Positions 44,124 through 56,436 of a DNA stretch of 64,000 bases are shown here, one piece after another. The stretch is from Halarcobacter sp. Its GTDB lineage: Bacteria; Campylobacterota; Campylobacteria; Campylobacterales; Arcobacteraceae. The position numbers and the translations under genes are program-made. The notes below the pieces were generated by a model. It worked only from the letters and a program-made list of their open reading frames with translations, had not been told where the DNA came from and searched no databases. Location of the stretch: the NCBI GenBank assembly GCA_963676565.1, contig OY781089.1, positions 672,001-736,000 on the forward strand, given 5' to 3'. Numbering within the stretch: the stretch's first letter is position 1; every line of letters starts with the position of its first letter.

Positions 44124-45410
44124 ATGGAAGCAATTAGTTCAAAACCATTACAGCTTAATCCAATTAAACTATCTCAACCAATGGGCGCGATGCTTTGTTT
44201 TTTAGGTATAAAAAACTGTATGCCTCTTATGCATGGTGCGCAGGGGTGTGCTTCCTTTTCAAAAGTTTTCTTCACAAGACACTTTAATGATCCAATTGCT
44301 GTTCAAACAACTGCAGTTAGTGATATTACAGCAGTTATTGATGGTGGAGATTATTCTATATCTGAATCAATAAAAAACATTACGAAAAAAGTAAAACCAG
44401 ATTTAGTAGGTCTTTTTACAACTGGTCTCACAGAAACAAAAGGGGATGATATAAGAGGTGCTTCCCTTTTAGTTAAAGACCAACAAGATATGGTTTATGT
44501 AAATACTCCAGATTTTGAGGGTTCTATTGAAAGTGGTTTTGCAAAATCTGTTGAAGCTATAATTGATCAAAAAGTAGAAGAAACAGAAAAGATTGATAAA
44601 ACAAAAGTAACAATTATTCCAAATGTAAATCTAAAGCCAATAGAGGTTGAAAAAATCAAAGATACTATTTCTTTATTTGGTTATGAGGCTTTAGCCCTTC
44701 CTGATTTAAGTGATTCTCTTGATGGTCACCTAGGATTAAAACAAGGAGCTTTAACTTCAGGTGGAATAAGTTTTGATGAAATAAAAAACCTAGCTTCCTC
44801 TTCCCTTGTGATTTCAATTGGAAGTTCTGTAAAAAAAGCAGGGGAAAAACTCAAAGAAAAAAATGAAAATATAAAACTTTTTCATTTTGATTCACTTGGT
44901 GGATTAGAGGAAAGTGATAGGTTTTTTAAAGTTTTATGTAAAGAAAAAAATATATCACAACCCCATCCAAGTATTGTAAGATGGAGAAAAAGGTTACAAG
45001 ATGCCTTATTAGATTGCCATTTTGCAATAGGAAGCTCATCTGTTGTTTTAGCCCTAGAGCCAGATCAGTGTATCTCAGTAGCTAATACAATTATTGAAGC
45101 TGGAGCAAACATAAAAGCAATTGTTACAACCCATAAAAACGACTTATTAGATGAAATTGAATGTGAAAATTTATTAATTGGTGATTTTGAAGATGTTGAA
45201 AAATATTTAAGTGATAGTGAAGTTTTAATCTCAAGTTTTCATGGGGAAAGATATACAATGAAACACCATAAGGCTTTGATGTTAAGAGGTTTTCCAGATT
45301 TTGAAGGATTAGGGAATCAGCTTAAAAATGATTGTTTATATGAAGGAAGTTCATATCTACTTTTTGAACTTGCTAATTTAATTAATACCCACAGGCATCA
45401 TGGAGCATAA
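44124..45410 (+). CDS. nifN: FeMo-co scaffold subunit NifN
   Basis: NPIKLSQPMGA, HGAQGCASF, RHFNDPI, TGLTETKGDD, PDLSDSLDGH. Confidence 0.94.
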   Translation: MEAISSKPLQLNPIKLSQPMGAMLCFLGIKNCMPLMHGAQGCASFSKVFFTRHFNDPIAVQTTAVSDITAVIDGGDYSISESIKNITKKVKPDLVGLFTTGLTETKGDDIRGASLLVKDQQDMVYVNTPDFEGSIESGFAKSVEAIIDQKVEETEKIDKTKVTIIPNVNLKPIEVEKIKDTISLFGYEALALPDLSDSLDGHLGLKQGALTSGGISFDEIKNLASSSLVISIGSSVKKAGEKLKEKNENIKLFHFDSLGGLEESDRFFKVLCKEKNISQPHPSIVRWRKRLQDALLDCHFAIGSSSVVLALEPDQCISVANTIIEAGANIKAIVTTHKNDLLDEIECENLLIGDFEDVEKYLSDSEVLISSFHGERYTMKHHKALMLRGFPDFEGLGNQLKNDCLYEGSSYLLFELANLINTHRHHGA

Positions 45411-48017: not shown

Positions 48018-48313
48018 GTAAAGAAACCTATTTAAACCTTTATAAAAAATATGAACTTTATCGAAGTGATATTTATATGCTTACAGAAGATAAACCTGCA
48101 GAGATTTTCTTTTTATTTGAAGAGGTATGTGAAGAGTTGGTTAAAGATAGAGCTATTAATAGACAACTACCACCAGAGTTTGTAAAAAATGCAAATCTTC
48201 TACTAGCACAAAACACTTTTGCAAATGTTTATTTCTCCTTTATTGATAATCGTGCTTTCTTTCTTAGTGATTTAATTGATTTCCTTGCCCTTATTAGAAG
48301 TGCCAAAAAATAG
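48014..48313 (+). CDS. hypothetical protein
   Basis: 99-aa ORF overlapping the upstream stop. Confidence 0.65.
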   Translation: MSKETYLNLYKKYELYRSDIYMLTEDKPAEIFFLFEEVCEELVKDRAINRQLPPEFVKNANLLLAQNTFANVYFSFIDNRAFFLSDLIDFLALIRSAKK

Positions 48314-48337
48314 GCTATCTTTTATCTTTTTTTCTTG

Positions 48338-48354
48338 TGGAACACTATTTGCAT
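48338..48354 (+). promoter_or_regulatory. sigma54 promoter of the nifX operon
   Basis: tGG-AACACTATTT-GCat. Confidence 0.87.
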
Positions 48355-48383
48355 ATATACTCATAAATTTATGAGGATGTAAT

Positions 48384-48779
48384 ATGAGCAGTATAAAAAT
48401 CACATCGAACACATCAAGTGAAGGTATGTTACAAGTAGCCTTTGCAACTAAAGACTTAGAGAATATTGATTCACACTTTGGAAGTGCAAAACAGTTTGCT
48501 ATATATGATATTAGTAAAAACTCTATCTCTTTAAGCGAAATAAAAAAGGTTGAGGAGAAAGATACAGATAAAACTGTAGCTTTATTAAAAGGAGTTGATA
48601 TTGTGTATTTTACAAATGTTGGAGCAATAGCTGCAGCTAAACTTATCAATTCAGGGATATTTACAATTAAGTATAAAGAGGTTGTAGGTATTGAGGAAGA
48701 GACAAAAAAACTTCAAGATATGTTAAATGCAAATCCTCCTCCATTTATCAAAAAAATAATTGAAAAGAAGGCTGCATAA
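48384..48779 (+). CDS. nifX: nitrogen fixation protein NifX
   Basis: VAFATKD...IDSHFGSA, GAIAAAKL, NPPPF; followed by a DUF269 gene. Confidence 0.85.
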   Translation: MSSIKITSNTSSEGMLQVAFATKDLENIDSHFGSAKQFAIYDISKNSISLSEIKKVEEKDTDKTVALLKGVDIVYFTNVGAIAAAKLINSGIFTIKYKEVVGIEEETKKLQDMLNANPPPFIKKIIEKKAA

Positions 48780-49216
48780 TGGAACTAAAAGAACTATTCT
48801 TAGACACACTAACGGGACAAATTAGAGCATTAGATCAATTTGGTACTTGGACTAATAAATCAGATGATGAACTTATTAAAGAAAAATATGTAAAAACAAA
48901 AGATGAATTAAAAGATATCCCAATTATTGCAGATATAGATGAGATGCAAATTAAAGATATTAGATTAATTTATCAAGCAGTTGCCCTTGCCTTTGAAAAA
49001 ATTACAGGTGTTATGGCTTCTGTTGTTATGGAGATGAGTCATGAAGGTTTTGGTCGAGTTGTAGTATTTGCAGATGATATTGTTCTTTGTGAAAAATACT
49101 TCAAAGATGCCCATAGATTTTCATTTAGAACATATGAAAAACTTGAAGAAGAGGGTGAGAAATATCTTAAAAAAGCTCAAGAGAAATACAACAAATATAA
49201 ATTAGAAACGGTGTAA
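48779..49216 (+). CDS. NifX-associated nitrogen fixation protein (DUF269)
   Basis: QIRALDQFGTW, MSHEGFGR, DAHRFSF. Confidence 0.88.
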   Translation: MELKELFLDTLTGQIRALDQFGTWTNKSDDELIKEKYVKTKDELKDIPIIADIDEMQIKDIRLIYQAVALAFEKITGVMASVVMEMSHEGFGRVVVFADDIVLCEKYFKDAHRFSFRTYEKLEEEGEKYLKKAQEKYNKYKLETV

Positions 49217-49253
49217 GTAAAGTAAAAAAGACTATTTTGAAGGAGAAGAAAAG

Positions 49254-49775
49254 ATGGCAAAAATGGGAATTTTTTGTGGAACAGCAGGTGGTACATCAAT
49301 GGTTGTTGCAGATGCTTTGGCTGAGGCATTTGGTATAGAAGAGGACGATATTATCAATATGGAAGAGGATTTTGATGATATTGAACAATTTGAAGATTAT
49401 GATGTTTTATTTATAGGTAGTTCAACTTGGGGACAAGGGGATGTTCACTTTTCATGGGTTGATGCACAACTTGAAATGGAAGATGAAGAGATGGATTTAT
49501 CTGGTAAAACTGTAGCATTATTTGGTGCAGGGGATAGTGTAAAACATGGAGAACATTTTTGTTCTGCATTGGGAAAACTTCATAAAACATTTACAGGTTT
49601 AGGAGCAAAAGTTGTAGGTTATGTTCCTAAAGATGGATATAAATATGAGTTCTCTTTGGCACAAATGGATGATAAATTATGTGGTTTAGCTATTGATCAA
49701 CATAATGAAGAAGATAAAACAGAAGAAAGAATTGAAAACTGGATTTCAAGTTTAAAAACACAAATTCCAGCATAA
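49254..49775 (+). CDS. long-chain flavodoxin (NifF-like)
   Basis: GTAGGTS, SSTWGQG, ALFGAGD, GLAIDQ.N, RIENW. Confidence 0.9.
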   Translation: MAKMGIFCGTAGGTSMVVADALAEAFGIEEDDIINMEEDFDDIEQFEDYDVLFIGSSTWGQGDVHFSWVDAQLEMEDEEMDLSGKTVALFGAGDSVKHGEHFCSALGKLHKTFTGLGAKVVGYVPKDGYKYEFSLAQMDDKLCGLAIDQHNEEDKTEERIENWISSLKTQIPA

Positions 49776-49795
49776 TCTGTAAGAAAGGATATATC

Positions 49796-50146
49796 GTGGC
49801 AACAGTAGAAGAATTTTATAGATGTAGAGATACAGAAGATTACTTTAAATTTTTTGGGATTGAATTTGATCAATCTTTAATAAATGTAAAGAGATTTCAT
49901 ATGATGAAAGAGTATGGAACACTTATTAAAAATGGTATTAACAATATTAAAGAGGAAAATAAACTTTTAGATTTCTTGAAATTTTCACTTTTAAGGGTTT
50001 ATGGTGATTATAAAAATGGACATGCACCAAGTGCTGCTGATGTTTGGAATATGTATGAAACTGGAAAACTTGAAGGTTGTTCATCATGTGGAACAACACC
50101 AGGTATGACTGGTTCAACTTCAACAGGTGGAAGTTGTGGCTGCTAA
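49796..50146 (+). CDS. nifW: nitrogenase-stabilising protein NifW
   Basis: EDYFKFFGIEFD...INVKRFHMMK; adjacent to nifZ. Confidence 0.82.
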   Translation: MATVEEFYRCRDTEDYFKFFGIEFDQSLINVKRFHMMKEYGTLIKNGINNIKEENKLLDFLKFSLLRVYGDYKNGHAPSAADVWNMYETGKLEGCSSCGTTPGMTGSTSTGGSCGC

Positions 50147-50543
50147 GGGCTTAGACCATGATTATATAGTCGATCCTAATACATTCTTTCATGATAATGT
50201 AACAGGTCCTAGGTCAGGGAAAGATGAAGATGAACCCAAATTTGGAGTTGGTCAAAAAGTAAAACTTATAAAAGAGATTGTAAACGATGGAACATATCCA
50301 CATTCTCCAATAGGTACATTAATGATGCCAAAGGATTCAATTGGATATATAAAATCTGTTGGAGAATTTCTTCAGGTAATTAGAGTTTATGAAGTGCATT
50401 TTTTAGGTGTAGAAGAGGCTCCTGTAGAGATAGTTGGATGTAGAGAAAATGAACTTGAAGCTATGGAAGATTATAAAGATGAAGTTAGAGAAGAGATTGA
50501 GTGGATGAGAAAACACAGAGAGAAATACTACAGTAAAGATTAA
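50127..50543 (+). CDS. nifZ: nitrogen fixation protein NifZ
   Basis: PKF..GQKV......NDGTYP....G, GEFLQ...VY.VHF, VGCRENEL. Confidence 0.9.
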   Translation: MEVVAAKGLDHDYIVDPNTFFHDNVTGPRSGKDEDEPKFGVGQKVKLIKEIVNDGTYPHSPIGTLMMPKDSIGYIKSVGEFLQVIRVYEVHFLGVEEAPVEIVGCRENELEAMEDYKDEVREEIEWMRKHREKYYSKD

Positions 50544-50546
50544 TCA

Positions 50547-50604
50547 TATGCTCCAAGTCAAACGAAAGAATTTTTTGGAATTTTTTCGTATGACTTGGAG
50601 CATA
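50547..50604 (+). other. long intergenic stem-loop
   Basis: Perfect 14-bp arms TATGCTCCAAGTCA / TGACTTGGAGCATA plus an inner stem. Confidence 0.7.
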
Positions 50605-50629
50605 ATTAATTTAATAAAGGAGAAGAAAC

Positions 50630-50968
50630 ATGGCAAAAGTTATTTTTATGCATTTTGATACTGAATCAGATGGTGTTTATGATGCAAAGATTGGTGAGCC
50701 TATCATTAGGTTAGCAAAGGAGAAAGGGATTCCTCTTCCTGCGGATTTAAAAGATTATTCTAAATGTTTAATTAAGGTTGAAAATTTGGCTGATGAAGAA
50801 CCTACAAGCTATATGGAAGATGAAGAACTAGAAGTATTAGTTGAACTTGGTGCTATTACAGAAGATGAAGCACATCAGTGTCAACAATTCACTATAAGTC
50901 CAAAAATTAGAATAGCACCTATGATGTTAGTTAAGGGTGATATTTTAGTTAAACCATATTCACTATAG
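50630..50968 (+). CDS. ferredoxin-fold protein resembling Shethna protein II (FeSII) but lacking most cluster Cys
   Basis: AKEKGIPLP-ADLKDYSKC-LIKV...long helical insert...RIAP-MML...GDILV; AAGGAG RBS. Confidence 0.7.
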   Translation: MAKVIFMHFDTESDGVYDAKIGEPIIRLAKEKGIPLPADLKDYSKCLIKVENLADEEPTSYMEDEELEVLVELGAITEDEAHQCQQFTISPKIRIAPMMLVKGDILVKPYSL

Positions 50969-51190
50969 TAATAAATTGAAGTATTAAAAGAGTAACTCGC
51001 AACGGTACCCTTAAAAAATGTCCATTTTTTAAGGAATCCGATGCTCTCTTTAGGATTTTGCTACTTTTTATCTTCACTGCGTTTGCTACAAGACTGCGCT
51101 ATGAAGAAGGATTTTTTATAAATCCTGCTAAAAAGTAGATAAATATGAAAAGGTCCCTTTAAAATTGGGACAATTTAAAAGGAAACAAAA

Positions 51191-51487
51191 ATGACAACAA
51201 GAGTAGAGATAGTAAATGATTTTTTAGCTATTAATGTTAAACCAGGAAGTACAATTCAAGATGTAGTTGAAGCATCTGGTTCAGCTTTACCATTTGGGTG
51301 TAGAGATGGTGAGTGTGGAACATGTGTAGTTGAGATTGAGCAAGGTATGGAATTTTTATCTGATATCAATGAAAAAGAGATAAAAGTTATTAATGAAGTT
51401 TGTGCAGGAACTTGTACTGAAAAGACAAGACTTTCTTGTCAAATGAAAATAGTTAAACCTAACGGTATCGTTAGAATTAAGTATTAA
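51191..51487 (+). CDS. [2Fe-2S] ferredoxin
   Basis: PFGCRDGECGTC ... RLSCQ. Confidence 0.92.
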   Translation: MTTRVEIVNDFLAINVKPGSTIQDVVEASGSALPFGCRDGECGTCVVEIEQGMEFLSDINEKEIKVINEVCAGTCTEKTRLSCQMKIVKPNGIVRIKY

Positions 51488-51540
51488 AAAATATACACTT
51501 TTTTGTCTAAATTCGTTTAGAATTTAGGCAAAATAGGACT

Positions 51541-52794
51541 ATGAGTATGGCACCTACATTATCAACATCAGTTGCACAAAAACAAAATCTTAATTTATCA
51601 CTTAAAATGTGGTTACCAATGTTGCAGTCATCACTGCAAGACCTAGAGAAACACCTAACAAATGTATCTTATGAAAACCCATTTTTAGAGATTAAAAAGC
51701 CAAAAGAGTTTTATAATAACTTTATGCCACAAGGAACAAGTGGAGAGTTTATTGAATCTTTAGCTTTATATGATGAATCATTACATGATAAAATCAGTGA
51801 ACAAATTTGTGCACCAAATTTTCCAACACCAAATTCACAAAAAGTTGCAATGGAGATTTTATGTGACATAAATGAAGATGGATATTTTGATGGAGATATT
51901 GAAAAGATTGCTGTAACATGTGGAGTATATAAAGAGTATGTTGAATCAATTAGACAAAGGTTTTCAAGACTAGAGCCATCTGGAGTTGCTTCAATGAACT
52001 TATCAGAATCATTTGAATTTCAATTAGATGCTTGTGATAAAGATATTGATGATGAGCTTTATAATTTTATTAAAAAAGTTGTAAAAGATATTGCTCACTT
52101 AGATAAATATGCTGCTCACCATAGATTTGATGATGCAAAGGATGTTATAAAATACTTTAATAATCCACCAGCAATCAATTATCTAAATACAAATACTCAG
52201 GTTATTCCTGATTTTTATGTGGATATTGGTGAAGATATTAATGTTAAGATTAATCACGCTTATTATCCTGATATTGAGGTAAAAGATCCTTTTTCTTCGA
52301 AGAATCAAAGTATAAAAGATAAACTAAAAGAAGCAAGGGATTTAGTAAATCTTTTAAATCTAAGAAAATCAACTTTATACAAAATTGTACTGTTAATTGT
52401 GGAGAAACAAATTTCATTTTTTGTTGGAGGAGAACTTAAACCTTTTTCAATGCAAGAATTAGCAGGAGAGCTAGGTTTTGCAGAATCAACAATAAGTAGA
52501 GCAGTTGCAAATAAACATATAGAGTGTAACCTTGGAATTTTTCCATTAAAACATTTTTTCACTAATGCTGTAAATGATAAAGATTTATCTTCATCTCAAA
52601 TTAAAAGTTATATTAAATCTCTAGTTGAATATGAAAAAAGAGAAACACCACTTACAGATCAACAGATATTAGAAATGATTTATGAAAAGTTTGATTTGAA
52701 AATGGTTAGAAGAACTATCACTAAATATAGAAAGATGTTAAATATTCCCTCTTCAAAAGAGAGAAAGAAACTTTATAAGGTAGAAAACCTATAA
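51541..52794 (+). CDS. rpoN: RNA polymerase sigma-54 factor
   Basis: Gln/Leu-rich region I, ESTISRAVANK HTH, RpoN box VRRTITKYR. Confidence 0.95.
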   Translation: MSMAPTLSTSVAQKQNLNLSLKMWLPMLQSSLQDLEKHLTNVSYENPFLEIKKPKEFYNNFMPQGTSGEFIESLALYDESLHDKISEQICAPNFPTPNSQKVAMEILCDINEDGYFDGDIEKIAVTCGVYKEYVESIRQRFSRLEPSGVASMNLSESFEFQLDACDKDIDDELYNFIKKVVKDIAHLDKYAAHHRFDDAKDVIKYFNNPPAINYLNTNTQVIPDFYVDIGEDINVKINHAYYPDIEVKDPFSSKNQSIKDKLKEARDLVNLLNLRKSTLYKIVLLIVEKQISFFVGGELKPFSMQELAGELGFAESTISRAVANKHIECNLGIFPLKHFFTNAVNDKDLSSSQIKSYIKSLVEYEKRETPLTDQQILEMIYEKFDLKMVRRTITKYRKMLNIPSSKERKKLYKVENL

Positions 52795-55064: not shown

Positions 55065-55991
<927 letters not shown>

Positions 55992-56076: not shown

Positions 56077-56436
56077 ATGTTTATATGTGGATACCACTTT
56101 CCAGCAAGTGAAGGAAATGATGTAGCTTTTGATAAAGTTGTAGAAAAAATTGAAGATGGTTTAGAGGCAACAGGTAAAACTGTAACTCTTACAAGTGAAA
56201 CTAGAGAGGGTGTATTATTAGAAACTCTTGAAGTATCTGAAGGTACATTTCTTCATAAAGCACTAGTTGATTACTATGTAAACACTGAGTGTAAAGAAAA
56301 AGATGGTTTCAAAATGATGTATTATACAAACAAATACCAAATTGCTGAAATCTCTAAATCTGTTGATGGTGAAGCTACAAAAGAGCTTTGTAAAAAATTA
56401 GATGACATGAATCTATACAGGGTAAAAGTAGCTTAA
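56077..56436 (+). CDS. unknown 119-aa protein between nifH and nifD
   Basis: AGGAG RBS, same strand and operon position; no family recognised. Confidence 0.85.

Follow-up and report, generated by a model that had tools for sequence, protein, structure and literature searches.

The window analyzed here, a stretch of 64,000 nucleotides from Halarcobacter sp. (contig OY781089.1), carries on its forward strand a nif gene cluster in which an open reading frame (ORF) at 50630..50968 encodes a protein of 112 amino acids. This ORF starts with ATG and is preceded, 7 nt before the start codon, by the Shine-Dalgarno sequence AAGGAG (50617..50622). Upstream of it on the same strand lie nifX at 48384..48779 (TIGR02663, E = 1.2e-29; PF02579), a gene for a NifX-associated protein (DUF269) at 48779..49216 (TIGR02935, E = 5.5e-41; PF03270), a long-chain flavodoxin gene at 49254..49775 (TIGR01752, E = 2.7e-46), nifW at 49796..50146 (PF03206, E = 5.6e-13), and nifZ at 50127..50543 (PF04319, E = 4.8e-23). 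Downstream of it, again on the forward strand, follow a gene for an intact four-cysteine [2Fe-2S] ferredoxin of 98 amino acids at 51191..51487 (PF00111, E = 1.7e-11), rpoN (sigma-54) at 51541..52794 (NF004602, E = 1.1e-166), and nifH at 55083..55991, which matches TIGR01287 and whose product is closest, among solved structures, to NifH chains (E = 2.6e-134). A pattern search placed a sigma-54-type promoter-like motif (TGG-N8-TTGCA, TGGAACACTATTTGCA) at 48338..48353 of the forward strand, 31 nt before the nifX start; the loose form of this pattern has 14 matches in the window against 4.5 expected. A preliminary description of this DNA had reported a 112-residue ORF with a strong ribosome-binding site in a sigma-54-type nifX-nifW-nifZ setting, and the ORF was confirmed at the coordinates given there.

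Several other features of the region were recorded. The segment 45790-48313, which separates a nifN-like gene (44124-45410) from nifX, encodes redoxin-like and ankyrin-repeat proteins, a 417-residue SagB-type/nitroreductase dehydrogenase, and a 99-residue ORF without a family. These genes are unusual passengers of a nif cluster and may have a redox-protective role. An ORF of 119 residues at 56077-56436, between nifH and nifD, matched no Pfam family at E up to 1e-4. Among the sequencing datasets listed as containing 49796-51487 there was none of RNA. Four RNA sequencing runs carrying the same species label as the DNA datasets that contain it gave 0 reads over 48300-51600, and the presence of the organism in those runs is itself unproven. 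DNA nearly identical to 49796-51487 (0.97-0.98 of sampled words) was found in four runs of one study filed under a different organism code, and the other libraries under that code are oligo-dT or polyA RNA-seq. The bacterium may be an associate of a eukaryotic host, or contamination may account for its DNA in those differently labeled runs.

Two intercistronic spacers flanking the ORF are strongly structured. First, a long and nearly perfect RNA hairpin is predicted at 50540..50609 on the forward strand, in the interval between the nifZ stop codon and the ribosome-binding site of the ORF (-35.6 kcal/mol, z = -9.2, with none of 200 shuffled sequences folding as well). This hairpin is single-copy in the genome, 5 of 30 related loci (L001, L006, L012, L024, and L025) have a similar one, and it may serve as an intra-operon processing, stabilizing, or attenuating element. 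Second, the spacer 50969-51190 before the ferredoxin gene is 222 nt long and also strongly structured (z = -5.25), compared to only about 14-60 nt in most relatives; it could be an insertion, a promoter region of its own, or a small RNA. Since Rfam gave 0 matches in the whole window at the gathering threshold, both are structured spacers without a known family.

The product of 50630..50968 matched no Pfam or NCBIfam model, save a chance-level match to GAAD (E = 0.076), and the Fer2 model PF00111 did not match it even at E up to 1. In a single-sequence phmmer search against all PDB chains, however, FeSII came first, with A. beijerinckii FeSII (9iey) at E = 8.7e-5 and A. vinelandii FeSII (5ffi) at E = 9.5e-4, the latter with residues 24-107 aligned to 26-113 of 122. 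A profile built from 17 family members matched FeSII at E = 2.5e-20 to 7.5e-17 over the full length (1-109 vs 1-113), while the best non-FeSII ferredoxin was found at E = 2.6e-4. The protein is thus closer in sequence to FeSII than to other [2Fe-2S] ferredoxins, and with a single-sequence E value of 8.7e-5 and a full-length profile E value of 2.5e-20 the resemblance is not a matter of chance.

Structure prediction leads to the same family. An AlphaFold2 model of the protein, made from a 41-sequence alignment, has a mean pLDDT of 87.4 and a pTM of 0.77. Its helices 64-73 and 78-86 map, by the phmmer/HMMER alignment, onto hN1 (69-78) and hN2 (84-91), the two helices that the available portions of PMC11754109 assign to the FeSII N-loop. 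The top Foldseek match of the model is the nitrogenase-bound FeSII chain 9cu1_N (TM 0.80, rmsd 2.7), and VIA-align superposed 111 of its 112 residues on that chain with a Z of 15.9 and an rmsd of 2.1, compared to a Z of up to 11.2 for other FeSII chains, whose loops are disordered or open, and up to 10.5 for ordinary ferredoxins. The predicted structure therefore combines the adrenodoxin-type fold with the inserted N-loop, and the model suggests that it sits in the compact "locked" shape of nitrogenase-bound FeSII. In FeSII, the salt bridge E71:R99 ties the N-loop to the core (PMC11754109, in part); the equivalent residues here, E66 and R94, are invariant in both the 17- and the 41-sequence family alignments. 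These and all other residue mappings are hand counts on HMMER alignments. Collectively, phmmer, the profile, Foldseek, and VIA-align agree on the FeSII-type homology, helical insert included, that the preliminary description had put forward. The scaffold strings it quoted are all present in the translation, the HMMER alignment to 5ffi_A pairs its two insert strings with each other, and the structural likeness to FeSII on which it had made its proposal depend is provided by the Foldseek and VIA-align matches.

The same alignment shows what has become of the cluster site. Cysteine C42 of FeSII corresponds to L40, C47 falls in a two-residue deletion, C50 is kept as C46, and C102 corresponds to P97. 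The four-cysteine ligand set of the FeSII family is thus reduced to C46, the former cluster loop (residues 36-46) is two residues shorter than in FeSII, and the only other cysteine, C84, lies in the second helix of the insert; this is the loss of three of four ligands, with one other cysteine in the insert, that had been read from the sequence beforehand. A word-indexed protein search gave 188 matches at E up to 0.01 among 190 candidates, and the 120 of these that were listed are 69-98% identical to the query, with those carrying a name coming from Arcobacter, Halarcobacter, Marinarcus, and Sulfurospirillum. Among these 120 homologs, cysteine is absent throughout at ligand positions 2 and 4 and is found in the ligand-1 column of only 4. 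An exhaustive search of 1.84 billion representatives returned only 14 matches at E up to 0.001, all within a narrow family; its distant matches (28-43% identity) keep the full CxxGxCGxC...RLAC pattern, and Azotobacter FeSII fell short of the 0.001 threshold when this single sequence was used. One divergent cysteine-poor member, in genome G313 (59% identity), has a cysteine near ligand position 1 and has lost both C46 and C84.

The distribution of the family was followed in one draw of 401 Campylobacterota genomes, in which related genomes are not independent observations. The family is present in 35 of these genomes and nifH in 51; by hand comparison of the tables, every genome with the family also has nifH, and the family is absent from all 350 genomes that are nifH-negative. 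The 35 copies comprise 21 intact cysteine-poor, 12 intact four-cysteine, 1 frameshifted cysteine-poor (G352), and 1 with stop codons (G296). The order nifW, nifZ, FeSII-like gene, ferredoxin is kept in 29 of 30 loci, with rpoN after the ferredoxin in 27 of 30, and this order does not depend on whether the FeSII-like copy is four-cysteine or cysteine-poor. The gene is thus confined to nifH-positive genomes and holds a fixed slot, as a nif accessory gene would. The four-cysteine form has a fixed place in the nif cluster of Campylobacterota, which reads flavodoxin, nifW, nifZ, FeSII-like gene, FdC-like ferredoxin, and rpoN. These four-cysteine relatives (for example L004, L005, L007, and L026-L032) occupy the same slot between nifZ and the ferredoxin, reach about 70% identity, and share the acidic N-loop motif of the window's protein, with the CQQF cysteine present in the nearest of them; they differ in keeping the Cx4Cx2C...C ligands and in a loop two residues longer. 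Literature searches found no characterization of them, and one of them, a Sulfuricurvum protein, is named only as a [quoted passage not shown]

In a maximum-likelihood tree, all cysteine-poor proteins fall on one side of a single branch and are nested among the four-cysteine proteins, with support of 100/99 both with 30 and with 33 rows. The sister of the cysteine-poor clade is a four-cysteine protein from the window's own family. As the cysteine-poor label is defined by residues within the alignment, the tree was repeated after masking of the loop and of the segment around the fourth ligand; the grouping was recovered, but support fell to 82/88, and it appeared in 77% of bootstrap trees. A single ligand loss is the simplest reading of these trees and is moderately supported by them. 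Present-day members of the cysteine-poor lineage belong to Arcobacteraceae, Sulfurospirillaceae, and one other family.

The FeSII-like gene is not essential to every nif cluster, as it is missing from 16 of the 51 nifH-positive genomes and from, or broken in, two members of one genus. In G273, a close relative, it is cleanly absent, with nifZ followed directly by the ferredoxin gene, and in G352 it is frameshifted near residues 92-95, while a third genome of that genus, G375, has an intact gene. These two genomes amount to natural knockouts within a single genus. In G296, where the copy contains stop codons, the rpoN match is fragmented, and nifH gives a short match that does not reach the cut-off.

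The protein is, then, a member of the FeSII structural family that is poor in cluster ligands, under selection, and restricted to nif clusters. Its function probably lies in binding to other proteins rather than in electron transfer or cluster-based sensing of O2. The reading that we favor, with somewhat more confidence than doubt, is that it is an apo FeSII-type descendant serving as a cluster-independent protein binder in the protection or maturation of nitrogenase, whose likeliest partner would be a nitrogenase component or a maturation intermediate. Nitrogenase components and their precursors are suggested as partners by the strict nif linkage, the position in the operon, and the whole-length match to nitrogenase-bound FeSII.

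The adjoining ferredoxin gene offers another partner. The closest solved relative of the 51191..51487 product is FdC (ferredoxin-4) of Rhodobacter capsulatus (PDB 9I2A, chain 9i2a_A, E = 3.9e-13), a working [2Fe-2S] protein that shares the core fold of the FeSII-like protein (Z = 10.5) and differs from it in having no N-loop insert. R. capsulatus FdC reportedly serves as an electron donor to nitrogenase. The FeSII-like protein could pair with this FdC-like ferredoxin, or with the flavodoxin, as a heterodimer subunit or as a docking adaptor, and in this way adjust the flow of electrons to NifH, or the cluster of the partner could be the redox sensor. The ferredoxin gene comes next in the 29 loci of conserved order, the Fer2 fold is common to the two proteins, and the neighbor gives a weak match to the family profile (E = 1.1e-5). 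Furthermore, the FeSII-like protein is strongly acidic (22 acidic vs 12 basic residues by hand count), as nitrogenase electron donors are, and FeSII is described as an obligate dimer (PMC11754109, in part). However, the adjacency is older than the cysteine loss. The FdC-like ferredoxin adjoins four-cysteine and cysteine-poor copies alike and was thus not recruited to replace the lost cluster, G273 has the ferredoxin at 92% identity without the FeSII-like gene, and the FeSII dimer contact D93:K53' is not kept here, where T88 and the variable position 49 take its place. Such pairing is therefore unlikely on the whole, and of the partnership that had been suggested earlier the adjacency itself stands, whereas the partnership drawn from it is weakened.

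The genes on the other side suggest a role in assembly. The FeSII-like gene directly follows nifW and nifZ, the hairpin and Shine-Dalgarno arrangement between nifZ and the ORF points to one transcription unit, and the gene is strictly nif-linked; its product could help NifW and NifZ to mature or assemble NifDK, in P-cluster formation, instead of protecting the finished enzyme from O2. However, the searches revealed no homology to any known assembly factor, the closest relatives are ferredoxins that bind finished components, and nearly a third of the nifH-positive genomes dispense with the family. These points leave the proposal improbable, about as much so as pairing with the ferredoxin.

A further possibility is that a metal or cluster is still bound in some non-canonical manner, with C46, C84, H8, or H82 as conceivable ligands, or at a site to which more than one subunit contributes. 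All 120 homologs listed have C84 and 95 of them have C46, H8 is invariant in 24 sequences, and two methionines follow the position of the lost fourth ligand. Against this, C84 is the only near-universal cysteine; the remaining 25 of the 120 have serine in place of C46, and C84 itself is lost in the G313 copy and is already present in the four-cysteine sisters, which have a normal site. As the former cluster loop is also the least conserved segment of the protein, binding of this kind is very unlikely.

Selection on the gene was assessed by two approaches. First, the cysteine-poor genes (n = 20) gave a median Nei-Gojobori dN/dS of 0.072 (range 0.012-0.316), calculated from 124 usable pairs of 190, the other 66 being saturated at synonymous sites. 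Second, column conservation was scored in the 120 homologs listed, where 48 of the 112 columns of the whole protein are at least 99% identical. Variability is highest in the former cluster loop (1.83 bits, none of its 11 columns at or above 99%), compared to 12 of 18 such columns in the hN1 region, 8 of 9 in the N-terminal strand, and 5 of 10 in the segment around the lost fourth ligand. With the loop so variable and hN1 and the N-terminal strand nearly invariant, constraint has been relaxed at the cluster site but retained on the N-loop and core. At the same loci, the FeSII-like proteins are 68-85% identical to the window's copy, vs 50-83% for NifW and NifZ. Neutral decay, which the preliminary description had said would overturn its proposal, is ruled out by the dN/dS values together with the near-invariance of the FeSII-specific insert. 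That the protein is a decaying remnant without function is scarcely credible, even with the deletion and frameshift in one genus and the stop codons of the G296 copy, for a gene whose reading frame is intact and whose ribosome-binding site is strong, and which evolves at so low a dN/dS, and is conserved as well as nifW and nifZ or better.

If the favored reading is right and nitrogenase is the partner of a cluster-independent binder, the contacts must differ from those of FeSII. According to the available portions of PMC11754109, FeSII contacts NifH through R72, N73, and K76 on hN1, which form salt bridges, and through E118 and the C-terminal A122, its tail placing A122 over the NifH cluster, and contacts NifD through K63 and R24. 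Here R72, N73, and K76 are replaced by L67, E68, and V71 within a strongly acidic helix, so that the NifH-contact residues of the FeSII family are not retained. The E118/A122 cap is missing as well, since only 5 residues follow the last strand, vs 9 in FeSII; K63 corresponds to T59, and R24 and R92 have no equivalents. The partner residues on the NifH side (E69, R101, N108, and E112) are unchanged in the NifH of this genome by hand count, which rules out a charge-swap co-adaptation of NifH. Thus, any binding to nitrogenase must use other contacts. The four-cysteine Campylobacterota relatives have the same acidic helix, and for this reason their own FeSII-like function is unproven and the whole branch may, judged from its sequences, have a mode of docking unlike that of Azotobacter FeSII, or another docking target. 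A complex prediction with two NifH chains and the FeSII-like protein scored 0.00 in both runs, for which the controls were not folded, and this score counts neither for nor against binding. The NifH proteins of this group have a peculiarity of their own: at residues about 83-94, an acidic insertion of 12 residues distinguishes the window's NifH from the Azotobacter-type NifH chains of the PDB, and all 31 Campylobacterota NifH sequences in the alignment share it.

The observation of an FeSII-like protein at 50630..50968 is confirmed, and its earlier interpretation as a cluster-less nitrogenase-binding or protective protein is partly supported. The protein descends from the four-cysteine FeSII-type ferredoxins, which are adrenodoxin-like [2Fe-2S] proteins with a two-helix N-loop. 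One lineage lost ligands 1, 2, and 4 and shortened its cluster loop by two residues, and it has remained under strong purifying selection throughout the time since. The descendant would no longer carry electrons or sense O2 by means of a cluster, and would bind protein through its near-invariant N-loop and N-terminal strand. Its role may be that of a cap or adaptor, independent of any redox cluster, on a nitrogenase component or maturation intermediate. With no cluster of its own, control could come from sigma-54/NifA-dependent expression, from the conserved thiol of C84, or from a partner protein.

A bolder version of this proposal is that Arcobacter and Sulfurospirillum protect or switch off nitrogenase by a cluster-free cap held permanently in the "locked" shape. 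Engagement of such a cap would be set by oxidation or disulfide formation at C84, or the FdC-like ferredoxin would act as the sensor. We regard it as rather doubtful. If true, it would represent conformational protection uncoupled from an intrinsic [2Fe-2S] switch.

Compared to the FeSII proteins of Azotobacter vinelandii and A. beijerinckii (PDB 5FFI, 8RHO, 9CU1, and 9IEY/9IEZ), the protein described here is alike in the Fer2 core with its two-helix N-loop, the core-to-loop salt bridge, the size (112 vs 122 residues), and the association with nitrogen fixation. It differs in the loss of three ligands, the shortened cluster loop, the acidic helix in place of the NifH-contact residues, the tail shorter by 4 residues, and the absence of the K63, R24, R92, and D93 equivalents; its gene, moreover, lies inside the nif operon. 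As both the ligands and the NifH-contact residues depart from FeSII, the protein is best filed as a cluster-free offshoot of the FeSII-type nif ferredoxins and not as FeSII itself. In FeSII the cluster is the O2 sensor (PMC11754109 and PMC11301756, in part), and as far as the available text of PMC11301756 extends, FeSII-type protection has been demonstrated only in the two Azotobacter species. An FeSII gene has also been reported in a Planctomycetota nif cluster (PMC12628686, in part). An O2-protective role has been proposed for FdxD of Rhodobacter capsulatus and for a nif-linked ferredoxin of Gluconacetobacter (PMC11301756, in part); these are likewise small and nif-linked, but they are described there as cluster-bearing ferredoxins and are set apart from the present protein by that description. 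An Atlas cluster named "Ferredoxin-5" (score 0.88) is a lead only. Literature searches, whose coverage leaves out most subscription journals, found no paper on a cluster-free relative of FeSII, and among the matches listed no paper named both "FeSII" and "Campylobacterota."

The Campylobacterota concerned are diazotrophs of sediments and roots. In their nif operons, in micro-aerobic or sulfidic habitats, an FeSII-type protein has discarded its sensor and has nevertheless been kept under strong selection. The four-cysteine and cysteine-poor sisters, about 70% identical and set in the same gene slot, constitute a natural swap experiment, and the genus that includes G273, G352, and G375 would be useful for a comparison of O2 tolerance. 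If the protein still binds nitrogenase, it would show binding by the FeSII scaffold to be separable from the redox trigger and would reveal how much of the scaffold suffices for docking. In that case, attempts to stabilize nitrogenase in foreign hosts would also gain a small, cofactor-free protein. If its partner is something else, the gene would mark an unrecognized accessory function of the nif system.
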